Of a DNA stretch of 64,000 bases, positions 6,293-59,479 are shown piece by piece. Position 1 is the stretch's first letter. Each line of letters starts with the position of its first letter. The notes under the pieces were generated by a model, which was given only the letters and a program-made list of their open reading frames with translations, had not been told where the DNA came from and did no database searches. The stretch lies in assembly GCA_965220745.1 (NCBI GenBank), contig CBDCQT010000010.1:672001-736000 (forward strand), written 5' to 3'. The position numbers were made by a program, and so were the translations under genes. Source of the DNA: Alphaproteobacteria bacterium. GTDB lineage: Bacteria; Pseudomonadota; Alphaproteobacteria; UBA828.

Positions 6293-6470
6293 TTAGAGCG
6301 TTTCCGTTACACGAAAACGCTCTGGCTTCTTTGTCGCTCGCGGCAGCCTGCCGACGGCCGGCGCCTCCGCGTCGCGCGTCCACGCGCGCGGGCGCGCGAC
6401 GCGGAGGCGCTGAAGCGGCGGACCGCAGTCGCGGCCTGTCGCGTGTCCGTCAAAGTCGGACACGCTCTAG
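6293..6470 (-). repeat. TAGAGC-ended double-hairpin repeat, copy 1 (inverted relative to the others, with an extra internal hairpin)
   Basis: TTAGAGCG...CGCTCTAG ends; reverse complement aligns with 48939, 50658 and 59289 copies. Confidence 0.85.
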
Positions 6471-7396: not shown

Positions 7397-7645
7397 GGGA
7401 CGCCGGACCATAGTGCGGTGCACGCAGCGGGCGGGGGAAGGCAGACTCGGCGGATGCGTCGCCCCGTCCATGACCCTGTCGAGAAATGCGGGCTGGGATG
7501 CGCCGCTCCGGTCCGCAGTGGGCCACCTTGGGCCGCTCGCCCCGGACCATCTTGGGCCACCTTGGGCCGCTTTGGGCCGGAATAGGCCGCCTTAAAACCT
7601 TCTTTCGGAACTTTCCGGGATTCTTCACCTGTCTCGGGCAGGCGG
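7397..7645 (+). mobile_element. DUF3486-element copy A: ORF-less derivative (both ends kept, about 600 bp internal deletion)
   Basis: Reverse complement aligns with 37763-37864 joined directly to 37011-37166. Confidence 0.8.
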
Positions 7646-7708
7646 CGCAGCGCGACATGCGGGCGAACCCGATTGCAAACAGGCGCTTGATTCGCCGCGC
7701 GAGAGATG

Positions 7709-7735
7709 TTAGCACTCACTACTAGCGAGTGCTAA
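7709..7735. promoter_or_regulatory. CIRCE element (HrcA operator) upstream of groES
   Basis: Exact TTAGCACTC-N9-GAGTGCTAA; perfect arms extend to 7702-7742. Confidence 0.97.
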
Positions 7736-7777
7736 CATCTCTATCAGACGATCTTACAGACGAACGTGGAGGAACCA

Positions 7778-23029: not shown

Positions 23030-23060
23030 GCCGGAGCGTGCCCGAACGCCTGGGCGGGAG

Positions 23061-23513
23061 GAATCCCGGTAAATTTCGAAAGAGTATTTTAAGGTGGCCT
23101 ATTCCGGCCCACTCCGGCCCAAAGCGGCCCAAGGTGGCCCAAGGTGGTCCAGGCAAGCGGCCCAAGGTGGCTCATGACGGACCGGAGCGGCGCATCGGAT
23201 GGGAGTGGATATCGAGCCGGTACGCGCCTTCGTCGTGTGTCTCCGGGGTCCATCCATACCAGTCGCCCTCGACCTCGGCGCGGATGATGGCAACGGCCTC
23301 GGGCGACAGCCCGCCGCCGCCCTTCGGCGTCTTGTTTCGCCCGGCGTCCATGCGGGCGACGGCGCTCTCGCGCTCCGCATCGCTCTTGCCGGCGCCTTCG
23401 ATGCGGTGCATGGCGAGCGCGAGCGGGGATTTGTCGACCGGGTGATGGTCTGCGCGATGCATCCGCGCAGCCTGCCCCGACCCGCCCGCCCCGTGCACCG
23501 CACCATGGTCCGG
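23061..23513 (-). mobile_element. DUF3486-element copy B, with 5' part of the ORF deleted
   Basis: Aligns with copy C except for a gap matching about 37400-37773; left boundary approximate. Confidence 0.85.
23172..23428 (-). pseudogene. C-terminal remnant of the DUF3486-like gene
   Basis: 75/83 aa identical to the C-terminus of ORF 37143-37742; RBS and start are missing. Confidence 0.85.
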
Positions 23514-36915: not shown

Positions 36916-37066
36916 GCCGGTCTCCTCGCCTGCTCTTCATCGCTCCGCCCAGGCCGGCACTCGCCGCCGGCCCGGCCCGAATGCTAGACGATGGCCGAGT
37001 CCGCCTCCAGCCGCCCACCCGAGACAGGCGAAGAATCCCGGCAAGTCTCGGAAGAGGGTTTAAGGC

Positions 37067-37146
37067 GGCCTATTCCGGCCCATTCCGGCCCAAAGCGGCC
37101 CAAGGTGGCCCAAGGTGGTCCAGGCAAGCGGCCCAAGGTGGCTCAT
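37067..37146. repeat. 10-bp-phased GGCC-N6 tandem array
   Basis: GGCCTATTCC GGCCCATTCC GGCCCAAAGC GGCCCAAGGT GGCCCAAGGT GGTCCAGGCAAGC GGCCCAAGGT GGCTCAT; also in copies A and B. Confidence 0.9.
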
Positions 37147-37742
37147 GGCGGACCGGAGCGGCGCATGGGATGGGAGTCGATATCGAGCCGGTGCGCGCCT
37201 TCGTCGTGTGTCTCCGGGGTCCATTCGCGCCAGTCGCCCTCGACCTCGGCACGGATGATGGCGACGGCCTCCGGCGACAGCCCGCCGCCGCCCTTCGGCG
37301 TCTTGTTTCGCCCGCCGTCCATGCGAGCAACGGCGCTCTCGCGCGCCGCATCGCTCTTGCCGGCGCCTTCGATGCGGTGCATGACGAGCGCGAGCGGGGC
37401 AATCTGGTCGGCGGTGGGCGGTTCCTCTTCGCGGTCGAGGGCGATGGCGGCGCGCAGGGCGAGAGACCGGAGCGTCTCGAGCGCGAGCCGCCCGGTTCCG
37501 CCCTCGGGCCGCTCGCCTTGCGACTTGAGCCAGAAATCGGTGAGCCCCTTGTCCTCGCTCCAGCGTCGCAGCCTCTCGCGCGCCCTCTTGGCGTAGCGGA
37601 CGACGGCCGAACGCGAGCAGGAGCCGCCGTGCGCGCGGATGAGCCGGACGATCTCGTCGATGGTGGCGCCCTCGGCGATCGCCTCGTGCACCAGCGCCTG
37701 AATCGGCCGCGGCAAGCGCTCGATGGAGGAACGCCCGGCCAT
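37143..37742 (-). CDS. DUF3486 / phage Mu gp27-like protein (putative small-terminase-like DNA-binding protein), 199 aa
   Basis: N-terminal GRSSIERLP...ATIDEIV..IRAHG...SRSAVVRY HTH pattern and GLSPEAVAIIRAEV near the C-terminus; GGAGG RBS before ATG 37742. Confidence 0.75.
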   Translation of the reverse strand: MAGRSSIERLPRPIQALVHEAIAEGATIDEIVRLIRAHGGSCSRSAVVRYAKRARERLRRWSEDKGLTDFWLKSQGERPEGGTGRLALETLRSLALRAAIALDREEEPPTADQIAPLALVMHRIEGAGKSDAARESAVARMDGGRNKTPKGGGGLSPEAVAIIRAEVEGDWREWTPETHDEGAHRLDIDSHPMRRSGPP

Positions 37743-37893
37743 CAGCCGGGCCTCCGGGGCGGTCCCAGCCCGGATGTTTCGACAAGGTGATGGTCTGCGC
37801 ATTGCATCCGCACAGCCTGCCTCCCCCCGCCCGCCCCGTGCACCGCACCATGGTCCGGTGTCCCCCACGCTCGGCCCCGGCCCATCCCCCACA

Positions 37894-37924
37894 TCGTCAT
37901 GCCCGGACTTGATCCGGGCATCCA
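37894..37924 (+). repeat. CGTC-type REP palindrome, left arm
   Basis: TCGTCATGCCCGGACTTGATCCGGGCATCCA; exact reverse complement at 38252-38282. Confidence 0.92.
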
Positions 37925-37938
37925 TATTCGCCGCAGGC

Positions 37939-38232
37939 TCACGGCAAAGTTTCGTAGAGGTCGTCCCAATCGGGGTTGTGCGCGACGATGAGATCGACCT
38001 TCCAGGCGCGCGACCAGTGCTTCATGGTCCGTTCCCGCTGGATGGCTGCGGCTATTTCGTCGTGCCGCTCCGCGTAGACGAGCCGCGTCAGGCCGTACCG
38101 CTTCGTGAACCCTTCAACCAAGCCTTCGCGGTGTTCCCACGCCCTGCGCGCAATGTCGCTAGTCACACCGAGATAGAGCGTGCCGTTGGGTCGGTTGGTC
38201 ATGATGTAGACCCAGCCCCCGCCCTCTCTCAT
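37939..38232 (-). CDS. Small GIY-YIG nuclease (YhbQ-like), 97 aa
   Basis: WVYIMTNRPNGTLYLGVT, RAWEHR, FTKRYG, AIQRERTMKHW. Confidence 0.93.
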   Translation of the reverse strand: MREGGGWVYIMTNRPNGTLYLGVTSDIARRAWEHREGLVEGFTKRYGLTRLVYAERHDEIAAAIQRERTMKHWSRAWKVDLIVAHNPDWDDLYETLP

Positions 38233-38251
38233 GCCCCCATGCTGCAATCCG

Positions 38252-38282
38252 TGGATGCCCGGATCAAGTCCGGGCATGACGA
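38252..38282 (-). repeat. CGTC-type REP palindrome, right arm
   Basis: TGGATGCCCGGATCAAGTCCGGGCATGACGA. Confidence 0.92.
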
Positions 38283-38490
38283 GTTGGGGTCAGGGGTGCG
38301 CTTTCACCGCACCGTGGTGCGGAGTCGACTGGGCGTGAGTCGCGCAAACCCGCAGGGTCTTGCGCGCTGCAATGGGAGTCCCGCGCGGGAGAGGGGGCGC
38401 GCCGCCGTGGTCACTCCCTCACGTCTTCATACCCGGACATGCCCGGGCTCGTTCCGGGTATCCGGACATCCCTCTCCACCAACTACTACA

Positions 38491-38568
38491 TCGTCATGCC
38501 CGGATTTATTCCAAGCATCTTACTCCGCGGCACCCACGTGGATGGCCGCAACAAGCACAGCTATGACG
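38491..38568. repeat. Degenerate empty pair of CGTC-type REPs
   Basis: TCGTCATGCCCGGATTTATTCCAAGCATC and TGGATGGCCGCAACAAGCACAGCTATGACG in inverted orientation; another decayed palindrome near 38437-38464. Confidence 0.6.
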
Positions 38569-46304: not shown

Positions 46305-46411
46305 CCCACCTCTCCCCGGCCCTCTCCGCCCCCAGGGGCGGAGAGGGAGAGTAGGCGGCGCCACCTACGTTCCCCCTCCGCCTTCGGGGGAGGGGGACAG
46401 GGGGAGGTGGG
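46305..46411 (+). repeat. Pyrimidine/purine-skewed palindromic repeat, copy 1
   Basis: CCCACCTC...CCCTCTCCGCCCCCAGGGGCGGAGAGGG...GAGGTGGG; inverted homolog at 51646-51844. Confidence 0.8.
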
Positions 46412-48894: not shown

Positions 48895-48938
48895 CCGCCT
48901 CCTCCTATCCTCGTCCGCGCCGATGGTACACCCGTGGC

Positions 48939-49088
48939 TTGGAGCGCGTCCGTTTTTCAAGGACGCGTGACAGGCCGCGACTGCGGCCCGCCGCGAAAGC
49001 GGCGCCCTCGCGGAGGCGTCGGCCGCTGGCCGGCTGCCGTGAGCGACAAAAGGCGAGAGCGTTTCCGTTTGAAACGGAAATGCTCTCG
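48939..49088 (+). repeat. TAGAGC-ended double-hairpin repeat, copy 2
   Basis: GAGCGCGTCC...GGCTGCCGTGAGCGACAAA...GAGAGCGTTTCCGTTTGAAACGGAAATGCTCTC. Confidence 0.85.
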
Positions 49089-49265
49089 CCGCCGCAATCG
49101 AGAGCGGCAGCGCGCTCGCCACTCTCTTGCCCCCCGTGCTACGGTTTGGGCCATCAGGCCGGGAGAGCCGTTTTACGTCATTCCGGTTGAGCGGCGTCGC
49201 GAAGGACGCCGAGAGCGCCTCCCGGCACAAGAAGCTCGATAACCGAGAACCAGGGAGTGCGGATC

Positions 49266-50660
49266 ATGAACGATCGTGATCATGAGGCGCGGCAATCGAT
49301 CGAGGCGCAGGTTGCGGCCGATCGAAAGAATTGGCTGACCCGGCGCCGGTTCCTGCAGGCGAGCGCGGCGGCGGCGGTCGGCGCCATCGCGGCGACCTAC
49401 GAGCCCAAGGAGGTCTTCGCCGACGTGGGCGGCCAGATCACCCTCTATTTCGCCGAGGGCAAGCGCTGGGGCGACACCCAGCGGGCGGTGCAGCCGCTCT
49501 TCAACAAGGTTTATCCCAATGTCGAGGTGAACTTCGCGGGACAGCCGATCTCGGACTTCTTCCAGACCGTGATCGCCCGCATGGCGGTCAAATCGGCGGA
49601 CTTCGACTGCACCTACATCGACTGGGGACGCTTCCCCGCCATCCACGCCACCGGCGCCATGGATTCGATCGAGGATCACCTAGCCAAGGATCCCGGCTGG
49701 CGCGACGACTACCTCACCGATGTGCCGAAGCAGGTCAGCGACCTCTATCGGATTCCGTCGGGCGATGGGGAGCTGCACGGACTCACCGACGATGGCAACG
49801 TCATGACCACCTTCTATCGCAAGGACGTCTTCGACGCGGCCGGCATCGCCCTGCCGATGAACTGGGACGACGCGATCAGCGCCGCGCAGGAGCTGCACGC
49901 GCCGGATCAGGACCAGTACGGCTTCGTCTCCTGCTTCCAGCGCGGCGCCTGGGCCGGCACCGTGTTCTGGGGCGTGCACGCGACCTGCGGCGGCTGGTGG
50001 TTCGACAAGATGGAGCCGGGCGGCTGGAACCCGGCCTTCGCGACCGACGCGGGCTACGAGGCGATGCGCGTCATCGAACAGCTCATGAAGTACGCGCATC
50101 CGGTCAGTGCCAACGCCACCGAGGACGAAGTGAACAAGTCCATGGCCAATGGCACGTCGGTCTATGGCCCGCTGAACTGGGGCACGGCGGTGCTGAACGA
50201 TCCGGGCTTCACCGAGTTCCACGAGGTGATCCATGTCGATCTGCCGCCCAAGGGCAAGAGCCCTGGCAGCGATCACAAGCCGCAGATGGGCGGGCTCGGG
50301 CAGTTCATCAATTCGGGCGGGGAGAACAAGGAGGCCGCGTTCGCCTGGATGCAGTACTTCAACTCGGGCGACTACACCGATCCCGCGATCGGCGACGCCA
50401 AGGTTGCGGCGGGCGCGCAGCCGGCGCGCGCCTCGATCCTGGCGCGCAATCAGGACCACAACTTCCTTGCGGGCCTCTACCGCGCCTTCCCGTACACGGT
50501 GCCCTATCTCATGCAGATCCCGGAGGCCAACGCCATCCAGGCGCTCATGGGCGAGGAGTGCGCCGATTTCGTCAATGGCGAGAAGGACATCGAAGCGGCG
50601 CTCAAGGCCATGGACGACCGCACCAGGCGGCTGATGGAGGACGGCGGCTATTACGGGTAG
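49266..50660 (+). CDS. Stand-alone ABC substrate-binding protein (CUT1), Tat-exported
   Basis: TRRRFLQ signal, FYRKDVF, NWDD; no adjacent permease. Confidence 0.88.
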   Translation: MNDRDHEARQSIEAQVAADRKNWLTRRRFLQASAAAAVGAIAATYEPKEVFADVGGQITLYFAEGKRWGDTQRAVQPLFNKVYPNVEVNFAGQPISDFFQTVIARMAVKSADFDCTYIDWGRFPAIHATGAMDSIEDHLAKDPGWRDDYLTDVPKQVSDLYRIPSGDGELHGLTDDGNVMTTFYRKDVFDAAGIALPMNWDDAISAAQELHAPDQDQYGFVSCFQRGAWAGTVFWGVHATCGGWWFDKMEPGGWNPAFATDAGYEAMRVIEQLMKYAHPVSANATEDEVNKSMANGTSVYGPLNWGTAVLNDPGFTEFHEVIHVDLPPKGKSPGSDHKPQMGGLGQFINSGGENKEAAFAWMQYFNSGDYTDPAIGDAKVAAGAQPARASILARNQDHNFLAGLYRAFPYTVPYLMQIPEANAIQALMGEECADFVNGEKDIEAALKAMDDRTRRLMEDGGYYG

Positions 50661-50806
50661 AGCGAGCCCGTCTTTCACGGGCTCGCTATAGGCCGCGACT
50701 GCGGCCCGCCGCGAATGCGGCGCGCCCGCGCAGGCGCCGGCTGCAGGCCGGCTGCCGTGAGCGACAAATGGCTAGAGCGTTTCGGTATGAGACGGAAACG
50801 CTCTGG
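50658..50806 (+). repeat. TAGAGC-ended double-hairpin repeat, copy 3 (starts at the TAG stop of the upstream gene)
   Basis: Aligns with copies 1, 2 and 4. Confidence 0.85.
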
Positions 50807-50906
50807 CGCGTCGGGCTGGCGCTCTATATAGCCATGTAACCGCGTCGGGGGGCCGGAGCGCGCAGCCCCGGCCTCCATGCGCCTGCCGTTTGAGGGAGGG
50901 AGAGAG

Positions 50907-51645: not shown

Positions 51646-51844
51646 CCCACCTCCCCCTGTCCCCCTCCCGACTCTTTTTATTTCCCTCAACGGCGGGCGC
51701 TCGCTCCGCTCGCTTGCCTACGCGCTTACGCGCGCGGCGCAGTCGCACCGTCCGGGCCTGCGGCCCGGCAGGGCGGAGGGGGAACGTGGGTGGCGCCGCC
51801 TACTCTCCCTCTCCTCCCCGCCGGGGAGGAGAGGGCCGGGGTGA
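51646..51844 (-). repeat. Pyrimidine/purine-skewed palindromic repeat, copy 2, with about 100 bp extra sequence
   Basis: Matches reverse complement of 46305-46411 except 51671-51770. Confidence 0.75.
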
Positions 51845-58169: not shown

Positions 58170-58441
58170 CTAGCCCGCATTTCTCACCACGGTCACGGCC
58201 TGCGTCGCGTCCAGGCGTTCGATCCGCCAGGAGCGGGCCGAAAAGCGTATCAGGGAATACGGTTGAGGCCCGCGACGACGCGGGCGGGCACCTGGGTGCG
58301 ACCCGAAGGGCGACGCTCTCCGGCCTACAGAGTGCGTCAAGCCGCTCCCCCGATGTCCCCGCATCGCGCTTCGCGGCTTTCCTGCTCTGTAGGCCGGAGA
58401 GCGCCGCGCAGACCATGACCCTGGTGAGAAATGCGGGCTAG
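58170..58441. mobile_element. MITE-like element with 35-bp terminal inverted repeats bounded by CTAG
   Basis: 58170-58204 vs 58407-58441 inverted, 32/35; inner perfect 19-bp GTAG-type inverted pair 58314-58332 / 58385-58403. Confidence 0.85.
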
Positions 58442-58557: not shown

Positions 58558-59292
58558 ATGCCAACAAGCGAGCCTGGTAAGGCCCCAGCCTCCGTCAATC
58601 CGCCGCAGGCGGGCGTGCAGAACCTGAACGACACCGCCTACGCGACGATCAAGGACGACATCATCTCCTGCGCCCTTCAGCCGGGAGAGGAAATCTCCGA
58701 GGGCCTGCTGGTCGCGCGCTACGGCATGAGCAAGGCGCCCATCCGCAGCGCCATGATGCGCCTGCGCCAGGAAGGGCTGATCGTCTCGCGCGGGCGGCAG
58801 GGCAACGCGGTCTCCCCGGTCACGCTGCGCGACATTCAGGAGATCTTTCAGCTCCGCCTCGTGCTCGACGTCACCGCCGTGAGGCTCGCCGCCGGCAAGG
58901 TGGATGCGGTCCGCCTGCGCGCGCTCAACGAGGCCGCGCACGCGACCTATCCGGAAGGCGACAGGGCCGGCCAGGCGGCCTATCTGCGGGCCAATCGCGA
59001 GTTCCACCGCTATGTCGCGGAGTGCACCGGCAACCAGCGCCTGGTCACCCTGGTCGTCGGCCTCATGGAGCAGCACGAGCGCATCGTGCACTTGGGGCTA
59101 GCCATGCAGCGTCGGGAGCACGAGTTCCACCACTTCCACGACGATCTGGTCGACGCGCTGATCGAGGGCGATGGCGAGCGGGCCGCGGAACTGACCGAGA
59201 AAGCGCTGCGCGGCAGCCAGAGGAAGGTGATGGAAGCCCTGACCGACTCGCCGGCGCAGATCGCGCTCGGGCCTGTGGACCTCACGCCTTAG
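58558..59292 (+). CDS. GntR (FCD) family transcriptional regulator
   Basis: LQPGE, SKAPIRSA, IFQLR, NREFH, GNQRL; start uncertain. Confidence 0.92.
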   Translation: MPTSEPGKAPASVNPPQAGVQNLNDTAYATIKDDIISCALQPGEEISEGLLVARYGMSKAPIRSAMMRLRQEGLIVSRGRQGNAVSPVTLRDIQEIFQLRLVLDVTAVRLAAGKVDAVRLRALNEAAHATYPEGDRAGQAAYLRANREFHRYVAECTGNQRLVTLVVGLMEQHERIVHLGLAMQRREHEFHHFHDDLVDALIEGDGERAAELTEKALRGSQRKVMEALTDSPAQIALGPVDLTP

Positions 59293-59438
59293 AGCGCGTC
59301 CGTCTTTGACGGATGCGCGACAGGCCGCGACCGCGGCCCGCCGCGTCAGCGGCGCCCTCGCGGAGGCGCCGGCCGCAGGCCGGCTGCCGTGAGCGACAAA
59401 GTGAGAGAGCGTTTCCGTGCGAAACGGAAATGCTCTAG
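59289..59438 (+). repeat. TAGAGC-ended double-hairpin repeat, copy 4 (starts at the TAG stop of the GntR gene)
   Basis: TTAGAGCG...TGCTCTAG. Confidence 0.88.
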
Positions 59439-59479
59439 CCACGCGGCGCCACCCTCGCGCCGACACCTCTGCTCTTGAC

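Follow-up and report, generated by a model that had tools for sequence, protein, structure and literature searches.

We have analysed a stretch of 64,000 nucleotides (hereafter the window) of an alphaproteobacterial genome, located at G000:C10:672001-736000, where G000 denotes the 4.8-Mb source assembly and C10 the contig. The subject is a short repeated module found three times in the window (copies A, B and C, Table 1), together with the only intact gene that these copies contain. This gene, in copy C, encodes a 199-aa protein (P0001) of the DUF3486 family, i.e., the family of the phage Mu protein gp27, a presumed small terminase (TerS). Relatives of the module were followed through the source assembly and through other genomes.

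The initial annotation of the window had described one intact and two internally deleted copies of a dispersed element built around an orphan gene, and most of this description agrees with our results. The three copies are recovered at the same places. A repeat search of the window pairs copies B and C as direct repeats (23088-23387 vs 37059-37358, 94% over 300 nt; 23422-23513 vs 37767-37858, 87% over 92 nt), and copy A pairs with both of them in inverted orientation (arms 7497-7626, 82-94%). The open reading frame (ORF) of copy C is indeed intact and has a ribosome-binding site, GGAGG, 9 nt 5' of its ATG. Its proposed identity is confirmed by the profile search, where P0001 matches PF11985 (Phage_Mu_Gp27) with an E-value of 1.9e-20 and 74.4 bits against a cut-off of 28, residues 7-169 being aligned on profile positions 1-171 of 173. 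It also matches PHROG 426, "terminase small subunit", with an E-value of 6.8e-22. Copy B retains residues 115-198 (90.5% identity over 84 aa, tblastn), close to the 75 of 83 counted before, and copy A lacks the counterpart of 37167-37762 in copy C, that is, the entire ORF except its last 7 codons. As had been noted, none of the three copies adjoins a terminase, capsid or integrase gene, and re-reading the surroundings of the element reveals neither terminal inverted repeats (TIRs) nor a target site duplication (TSD).

Table 1 Coordinates of the three module copies and their parts in the window
Feature	Position	Strand	Description
21-mer of copy C	37838..37858	-	minus-strand read CCGGACCATGGTGCGGTGCAC; imperfect dyad; upstream part of the promoter-like module
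-10-like hexamer and ATG of copy C	37805..37819	-	hexamer CAGGCT 37814-37819, 6 nt, ATG 37805-37807 at the putative transcription start
21-codon open frame of copy C	37742..37807	-	opens at the start-site ATG; stop TGA runs into the main gene's ATG (TGATG)
DUF3486/Mu gp27-like small-terminase gene (P0001)	37143..37742	-	199 aa; HTH helix CSRSAVVRY; C-terminal motif GLSPEAVAIIRAEVEG
Array of copy C	37059..37142	-	~8 phased 10-bp units, minus-strand core TGGGCC; begins at the stop codon
AT-rich patch and last conserved stretch of copy C	37019..37058	-	TTAAAC, then CCCGAGACAGG...; homology with copy A and C5:321236 stops here
Copy B module	23058..23513	-	internal 372-bp deletion; 21-mer 23493-23513, TerS remnant 23178-23429 (aa 115-198), array ~23096-23172
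Copy A, ORF-less module	7397..7646	+	21-mer 7403-7423 (1 mismatch), array ~7519-7589, AT-rich patch 7590-7599

The module and the phage-derived genes behind it

The family extends far beyond the three copies of the window, with ~45 modules in each genome across the genus. With copy C as the query, blastn found 33 further pieces in the source assembly, and tblastn with P0001 found eight more DUF3486 genes there. Six of these are ~50% identical to P0001 and sit in units of 0.7-1.0 kb that are 88-90% identical to each other (the six-copy family). Every copy ends in one 21-mer, GTGCACCGCACCATGGTCCGG. At up to 3 mismatches this 21-mer gives 50 matches in the source assembly, or 48 after subtraction of 2 mirror hits of the near-palindrome, and 20 of them show zero mismatch. 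Among the 41 genomes searched, it occurs 9-69 times per genome in exactly 17 of the 20 same-genus genomes, namely the 17 that have PF11985, and 0 times in the other 3 members of the genus (all 100% complete) and in 20 genomes of other genera. DUF3486 genes without a large terminase (TerL) gene beside them are present in 3-15 copies per genome. All the 61 DUF3486 loci matched by P0001 (tblastn; 9 from the source assembly itself and 52 fetched) have the 21-mer, at up to 4 mismatches, 73-164 nt upstream, and the intact homologues do not all lie in Mu-like prophages with these same flanks.

Read toward the gene, the module consists of CCGGACCATGGTGCGGTGCAC, 18 nt, a hexamer (CATGAT, CAGTAT or CAGCAT), 6 nt and an ATG. 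The arrangement of 21-mer, N18, hexamer, N6 and ATG is common to copy C and to four phage-derived genes described below, those for the portal, the protease, DUF5675 and TerL, and a loose version of this pattern fits 35 of the 48 sites. If the hexamer is taken as a -10 element, the dyad CCGGACCATGGTGCGG would be centred at about -43.5 and the ATG would coincide with the transcription start. Such a geometry of dyad and -10 element resembles the Mor- and C-dependent promoters of phage Mu. The start-site ATG opens the gene's own frame in the six-copy family, the DUF5675 gene and TerL. For copy C and the genes of portal and protease, it opens a frame of 17-42 codons whose stop overlaps the ATG of the gene, as TGATG before the portal gene and ATGA before the protease gene. 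The layout suggests that the modules act as promoters and that translation from them may be leaderless.

In the source assembly the same module heads several groups of phage-derived genes. One is a head-tail cluster (C10:9787..1) with maturation protease, scaffold, major head protein, adaptor, neck, tail tube and a tape-measure C-terminal domain. Another is a lysis-like cluster with DUF5675, a PHROG 6637 match, which we take to be a candidate membrane protein, and DUF2730. The module also heads a Mu-type portal gene (Portal_Mu), and directly upstream of the portal's 21-mer lies a TerL gene of 458 aa (Terminase_6C; TerL by PHROG). The TerL gene has its own version of the module, with 5 mismatches, which ends on the TerL start codon. 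TerL and portal occupy C10:115914-118667, on the contig that also holds copy C, at a distance of ~590 kb from it. Orthologues of the DUF5675 gene abut the 21-mer in 5 of 5 genomes checked, and those of the protease gene in 4 of 4. Since the same module precedes syntenic, single-copy Mu-like genes, the DUF3486 genes are not orphans, as they had been called, but probably the TerS genes of a dispersed system. Likewise, the "tail" that had been regarded as an end of the element is better read as a promoter with a start-site ATG, common to fixed phage genes.

These phage-derived genes appear to be inherited with the host. Both flanks of the locus formed by TerL, 21-mer and portal are syntenic in 6 of the 8 genomes fetched (85-95% nt identity); in the remaining two, G003 and G018, the portal segment alone aligned. 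The major head protein is single-copy and 92-100% identical at the aa level in 16 of the 20 genus genomes searched, with no match in G012, G016, G017 and G018. The portal gives one match, of near-equal score, in 12 of the 17 genomes with the system. Head and portal genes are 1.2-1.7 Mb apart in G004, G011 and G014. That is, structural and packaging genes are transmitted vertically in the host lineage, as in a gene transfer agent (GTA), and at least 4 loci of the source assembly share the module, which is consistent with the common control of a multi-locus GTA as judged from the motif. In the source assembly the Terminase_6N profile, the kind found in RcGTA-type agents, gave no match; the Mu-like_Pro profile had none there or anywhere else searched, and is thus uninformative.

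The ordinary Mu-like prophages of the genus are organised differently. In them gp27 is located 1.6-2.1 kb upstream of the portal gene (4 loci fetched, 2 from search coordinates), a gap that equals the space a terminase gene would fill. Seven same-genus gp27 loci unmatched by P0001 (tblastn) have neither a 21-mer at up to 5 mismatches nor an array, and 4 of them adjoin a Mu portal gene. The canonical context of gp27, directly upstream of TerL and portal in a Mu-like prophage, is not seen near the three copies of the window. Because synteny, single-copy capsid, dispersed loci and the contrast with the prophage gp27 loci point the same way when taken together, we consider the genes characteristic of a multi-locus particle system that has been domesticated, is of the GTA kind and has Mu-like ancestry.

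Most of the modules carry no gene. In the census of the 48 sites, 9 have a DUF3486 gene or remnant after the 21-mer (a tenth gene has a 21-mer with 4 mismatches), 3 have other phage-derived genes, 1 has a beta-lactamase-family gene 30 nt downstream and 1 has another ORF. The ORF-less modules amount to 32, including 27 with an array of at least 3 phased units, copy A among them, and 5 with two units, while 2 sites have the 21-mer without an array. For the TGGGCC-kind arrays alone, there are 11 in the source assembly for one intact gene, that of copy C. Internal deletion had been proposed as the origin of the gene-less copies. This holds for copy B but not for most of the others: by blastx, a TerS core remnant is retained in 1 of 51 ORF-less modules (copy B; source assembly and G020 together), so they are not simple decay products. 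Six other blastx matches in ORF-less modules are confined to the array-encoded tail or the leader, and the stretch from promoter to array is mostly unrelated between ORF-less copies. The beta-lactamase-family gene (PF00144; C12:343900-345161, or L064:1900-3162) starts at the module ATG, behind a 21-mer with 2 mismatches.

Repeat arrays and the DUF3486 protein

What had been described as the conserved leader is a phased array located 3' of the gene, in which 2-25 units of 9-10 bp are followed by an AT-rich patch. In L043, an orthologue of copy C, the tandem repeat finder (TRF) gives a period of 10 for this array. We have scored the array unit against the helix motif C-S-R-S/A-A-V-x-R-Y at the 61 loci and four fetched later, and have found that the unit tracks one or two residues of the helix. 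When x is V the array is TGGGCC (8 genes), when it is C the array is TGAGCC (1 gene), and when it is A or N the array is TGTGCC (4 genes). The helix SRAAVG goes with TGTCTC/TATCTC (2 genes) and SRSAVG with (A/G)TCCC (42 genes). Seven genes with a disrupted helix have no array, and for one gene whose N-terminal domain is missing the array was not scored. On the protein tree, the array labels require 5 changes (minimum 4), compared to a mean of 17.3 for shuffled labels, and 0 of 200 shuffles were as low. Since each array is linked to its gene, the match within modules is weak evidence when taken alone.

In the six-copy family the reading frame continues through the array into a conserved tail. 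Where a 10-bp period persists within a reading frame, it is the DNA rather than the protein that appears to be constrained. In this family (C3:16163-17100 and five sisters) the frame ends in the tail ESWxEIAPRVYRTSPTSILSLGPE, where synonymous changes outnumber non-synonymous ones between diverged copies (eye count), so that the array appears to be part of genuine coding sequence here.

The comparison across genomes extends to arrays without an attached gene. For it, the genome sets of each array type were predicted before the triplet searches. Exact phased TGGGCC triplets are present in 7 of the 21 genus genomes (G000, G001, G006, G008, G011, G015 and G020), which are exactly those with a V-type gene, and in 0 of the 14 others. 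TCTC triplets number 32 in G019, 44 in G020, 6 in G007, 1 each in G005 and G010, and 0 elsewhere. G019 and G020 have a TCTC-type gene and no SRSAVG-type gene among the three PF11985 loci read in each. TCCC triplets number 1 in G019 and 0 in G020, 5-242 in the other 16 genomes with the system (the source assembly included), and 2-4 in the three without it. All the 14 TCTC arrays fetched from G020 belong to modules that have no ORF and carry the 21-mer 180-280 nt upstream. Furthermore, orthologous ORF-less modules at purS-purQ and at C12:743401 are of the TCCC type in the source assembly and of the TCTC type in G020; the promoters of the purS-purQ pair can be aligned with each other and have a derived 21-mer change in common. 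From these cross-genome and orthologous-locus matches, the arrays follow the resident TerS type even without an attached gene. Selection for recognition would explain this match in trans, and so would gene conversion from a master copy.

The AlphaFold2 (AF2) model of P0001 has a three-helix helix-turn-helix (HTH) at residues 10-60 with a predicted local distance difference test (pLDDT) score of 90-94, that is, the N-terminal HTH of a small terminase. Long helices are predicted at 44-74, 83-103 and 111-143 with a pLDDT of 47-75. A search of PDB by sequence profile gave nothing at an E-value of 1 or below. The C-terminal motif GLSPEAVAxIRxxVEG is retained across clades that are only 40-50% identical. 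In the predicted complex of TerL with P0001 the interface score (ipSAE) is 0.70, compared to 0.00 for the best of three controls. Of 80 solved complexes, 58 attain this mark, as do 2 of 110 mismatched pairs. At least 37% of the contacts recur between runs, and the partner pLDDT is 51 or higher. The predicted interface places the conserved motif (P0001 149-171) on TerL 12-112, which supports a role of the C-terminal segment in binding the large terminase, as would be expected of a TerS.

We have also calculated dN/dS over the first 172 codons, and 14 of 19 pairs show values of 0.17-0.56. Some DUF3486 paralogues have a disrupted helix or are without the N-terminal domain. Among them is a clade of seven longer paralogues (L052 and L054-L059, in G004 and G014; 222-294 aa) with disrupted helix and no array, which have kept the 21-mer and share a Pro/Ala-rich conserved C-terminal extension ending in ...WPTDPPFCPSEWSGPG.

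Origin and possible role of the modules

The modules have been gained and lost, as deduced from their presence, absence and spread across genomes. Copy C and its left flank are orthologous in G008 (92% nt) and G011 (96% nt), and the truncated copy B is common to G006 and G011. The modules at C3:85k and C7:43k, ORF-less in the source assembly, hold genes in G008 and G019. Short empty sites exist in the source assembly where G003, G004, G014 and G020 have modules; L026, L029/L030, L007 and L054 are filled sites of this kind with conserved flanks, and L097 is filled where C10:76823-76877 is empty. The TCTC family occupies at least 14 sites in G020, with one cognate gene. Comparison of filled with empty sites, and alignment of 14 young modules of G020, show module ends that are unlike each other and not inverted, and no consistent TSD, a 7-8-bp candidate at L029/L030 being ambiguous. 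We have searched 21 genus genomes for a Y1/HUH transposase (PF01797) and found 0; the control search was positive for 6 of 14 reference genomes. G015 was considered as an empty site for copy B and rejected, as the difference of 779 bp also removes part of a gene fragment. For Mu-transpos_C there are three weak matches (E 8e-6 to 5e-5) in frames of 570-584 aa at C10:141492, C10:185380 and C1:1320; two have identical scores, they are not near any phage-derived locus, and they probably represent a transposon family.

On balance, we favour the explanation that the modules are parts of a domesticated Mu-like system of the GTA kind that marks many chromosomal places for packaging, and we regard it as fairly probable. 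It retains what the initial annotation had offered as one reading, a TerS-like protein with cognate sites scattered on the chromosome, and departs from it on the orphan gene, the element ends and the deletions. Each module would begin with the late promoter of the system, i.e., the 21-mer dyad followed by an ATG at the start site. Modules with a gene, like copy C, would encode a TerS whose N-terminal HTH reads the 9-10-bp array after the gene and whose invariant C-terminal helix docks on the single-copy TerL encoded elsewhere. The ORF-less modules (copy A, and copy B by decay) would be extra recognition sites for the TerS of a master gene, and once the particle genes are switched on, packaging would start at many defined places of the chromosome. 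The computed support consists of the common promoter module, the vertical TerL-portal locus, the single-copy capsid, the match between helix and array, and the predicted TerS-TerL interface. Promoter activity, DNA binding, initiation of packaging and particle production would follow from the sequence features if they are read correctly. As to the near-perfect 21-mer of ORF-less modules, perhaps transcription into the array matters, or perhaps the 21-mer is part of the recognised site.

Several points weigh against this explanation. A Mor/C late activator (PF08765) was found in 0 of 25 genomes. A pure role as packaging sites leaves the near-perfect 21-mer of ORF-less modules unexplained. In the complete genome G004 the 59 sites are spaced no more evenly than by chance (coefficient of variation 1.16 vs 0.98 for random sites). 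The match within modules is expected from linkage and rests on about six changes among related sequences, and L051 (N) and L100 (A) have the same array type with different helix residues. The cross-genome matches also involve related genomes, and gene conversion without selection could yield them. G007 (67% complete) has its 6 TCTC triplets without a TCTC-type gene in its two PF11985 loci, of which L079 is of the G type and L083 has no TerS helix motif or 21-mer. On the protein side, the AF2 model (mean pLDDT 65.9) reaches high confidence at residues 10-60 alone, Foldseek against PDB gave nothing at an E-value of 0.001 or below, the complex score may partly reflect likeness to solved terminase complexes, and dN/dS is 0.61-1.54 in 5 of the 19 pairs.

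Three further observations had been considered and were rejected. Peaks of depth at the array and the 21-mer in sequencing runs are not a packaging signal, as they reflect copy number. Joints that skip the ORF most likely stem from ORF-less modules elsewhere. The contigs from RNA libraries (X20), with at least 88% identity over parts of the gene, come from relatives and are no evidence of transcription. Separately, the strand bias of the 59 sites in G004 is no different from random.

Other explanations draw on the same material. The modules might be a novel sort of selfish element, a "packaging drive", in which an array recognised by a terminase subunit gets its module and neighbourhood loaded preferentially into host transfer particles; we consider this possible but doubtful. 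With the same reserve, a few master TerS genes would then serve dozens of ORF-less free-riders, and arrays would be retuned upon a change of TerS specificity (TCCC in G000, TCTC in G020). It is also conceivable, if unlikely, that the modules form a mobile selfish repeat family moved by some enzyme, with gene-bearing copies as the autonomous and ORF-less copies as the non-autonomous members, the TerS-like protein being an accessory DNA-binding factor and the arrays its subterminal sites, an account that overlaps with the packaging explanation. Presence or absence at orthologous sites with conserved flanks, lineage-specific spread as in the at least 14 TCTC ORF-less modules of G020, the sharp ends of this young family, and the ORF-less state of 32 of 48 modules with a TerS core remnant in 1 of 51 would all suit such a family. 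What it does not account for is the lack of TIRs and of a consistent target duplication at the junctions read, the absence of a Y1/HUH transposase from the 21 genomes with only three unlinked, weak Mu-transposase-like matches, and the mostly unrelated middles of ORF-less copies. In addition, the 21-mer module stands before fixed, syntenic, single-copy phage genes, and for this reason it should be a promoter before it is an "end".

An explanation that we regard as improbable takes the DUF3486 proteins as transcription factors of a 21-mer regulon, whose HTH, similar to sigma region 4, would bind the dyad where it overlaps the -35 position, with the arrays as decoy or autoregulatory sites. Within the genus, PF11985 and the 21-mer do co-occur fully (both in 17 genomes, neither in 3), the HTH shows strong conservation between clades alongside an invariant 21-mer, and no Mor/C activator was found in the 25 genomes. 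Among the non-significant Foldseek rows, SigR region 4 ranks at the top (E 0.44), sigma region 4 and other HTH chains lead, and the small terminases of Sf6, P74-26 and G20C appear at E 1.1-1.5. On the other hand, Pfam and PHROG place the protein among Mu gp27 and small terminases, the complex prediction puts its C-terminal motif on TerL (0.70 vs 0.00), and the varying helix residues track the array unit and not the invariant 21-mer. Finally, it is very improbable that the copies are mere leftovers of old Mu-like prophages, inert and without a function today. The truncated copy B, the paralogues with a disrupted helix or a lost N-terminal domain and some dN/dS values near 1 are what debris would look like, but the unit is sharply bounded and, at 0.25-0.9 kb, not of prophage size, the 21-mer is identical in 20 copies of the source assembly and across species, most dN/dS values are 0.17-0.56, the array types are retuned genome-wide, and the ordinary Mu-like prophages of the genus are without 21-mer and arrays.

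As regards known systems, the closest for the protein is Mu gp27, with the same family, an N-terminal HTH plus long helices, a TerL with Terminase_6C and a Portal_Mu. Unlike gp27, the gene stands alone, with its own promoter module and a repeat array after it. In headful phages, SPP1 has the small terminase G1P with the sites pacL and pacR, and P22 has gp3 with pac inside gene 3. The modules resemble these in that a TerS gene has a candidate recognition site in or next to it and in the helically phased short repeats, which would let an HTH ring bind one face of the DNA. They differ in the many sites per chromosome, most of them gene-less, and in several putative TerS specificities within one cell. 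SaPI and PICI satellites encode their own TerS and redirect the packaging of a helper. Similarly, a TerS gene apart from TerL would here steer a motor encoded elsewhere to its own site; the modules differ from these satellites in having no integrase, replication or excision genes, in their size of 0.25-0.9 kb, and in a motor made of fixed, host-inherited genes instead of a helper prophage. With miniature inverted-repeat transposable elements (MITEs) and the REP/RAYT repeats they share dozens of short intergenic copies, conserved ends, few protein-coding masters and insertion polymorphism. The differences are that there is no TIR, no clear TSD and no Y1 transposase in 21 genomes, and that one "end" is the promoter of fixed genes.

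As a whole, the system is closest to a multi-locus GTA, its protein being a member of the Mu gp27 family. GTAs are usually described as random packagers of host DNA, and whether they serve the host or are selfish is debated. The GTA of Rhodobacter capsulatus (RcGTA) is presented with a multi-locus "genome" by Hynes et al. (2016, PMC5026251). The likeness lies in phage-derived head, tail, packaging and lysis genes that are inherited by the host, scattered over several loci and under apparently single control. Unlike RcGTA-type agents, which are described as packaging DNA at random, the present system has Mu-like ancestry (Portal_Mu, gp27), and its TerS paralogues look sequence-specific and have dozens of cognate arrays. 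Among the papers listed on DUF3486 and on Mu-like gene transfer agents, titles and opening lines of abstracts do not describe such an arrangement; for DUF3486 they gave a halovirus genome. What is new is the arrangement. TerS no longer sits beside TerL and has been multiplied to give several specificity classes, every copy having a phased array, and dozens of promoter-plus-array modules without an ORF are of the type that matches the resident TerS.

If packaging starts at the arrays, these bacteria would transfer genes in a site-directed manner that can be tuned. The pairs of helix and repeat (V with TGGGCC, G with TCCC, SRAAVG with TCTC) offer a ready system to learn how small terminases read DNA, and the family is a test case for a cis-site family and a trans-acting protein that co-evolve across a genome.

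Neighbouring genes and other repeats

The promoter module of copy A points at a CIRCE inverted repeat (7711-7737) and groES (start 7779), and other ORF-less modules point into what we take, judging by the first residues, to be pyrB and purQ. Read-through from the putative late promoters of ORF-less modules into host genes is thus possible. A search of Rfam gave no family at gathering score across the whole window, with two chance-level rows only near copy A.

Next to copy C, a GIY-YIG nuclease gene (37939-38277; Pfam E 7.1e-12) lies between copies of a hairpin repeat, GTCATGCCCGGACTTGATCCGGGCATCC, at 37882-37935 and 38479-38532. Segments with 91-95% likeness to it adjoin two further DUF3486 modules (C10:401.3k and C7:309.4k), and the orthologue of copy C in G008 and G011 is without this neighbour.

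Several other repeat families are found around the modules. A 272-bp MITE-like element at 58170-58441 of the window has 40-nt inverted ends, CTAGCCCGCATTTCTCACC..., and CTAG/TTAA-type flanking sites. Such ends number 74 in the source assembly at up to 3 mismatches, many of them paired ~250 bp apart, and some DUF3486 modules end in one. These ends and the TA-type target resemble those of IS630-derived MITEs and may point to a relation with them. A 1.3-kb repeat, probably an insertion sequence, has six copies of 99-100% identity (C10:39653-40923, C10:400012-401320, C12:515931-517238, C12:820951-822261, C13:291759-293066 and C7:94513-95803); four copies are 35-235 bp from a 21-mer, and one splits a REP-like hairpin beside a DUF3486 module. 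At L097 (G020:C7:383600-385100), positions 322-535, the 21-mer plus two bases forms a direct repeat around a 170-bp insertion. This insertion belongs to the GGAGGGGGAACG-type repeat family, also seen in the window at 46335-46382 and 51772-51819. The window further contains unrelated dispersed repeats of ~150 nt (82-91%, both orientations) at 6329-6469, 48938-49090, 50656-50808 and 59288-59440. The sequencing runs whose contigs hold this stretch (23 runs) include several sponge metagenomes.

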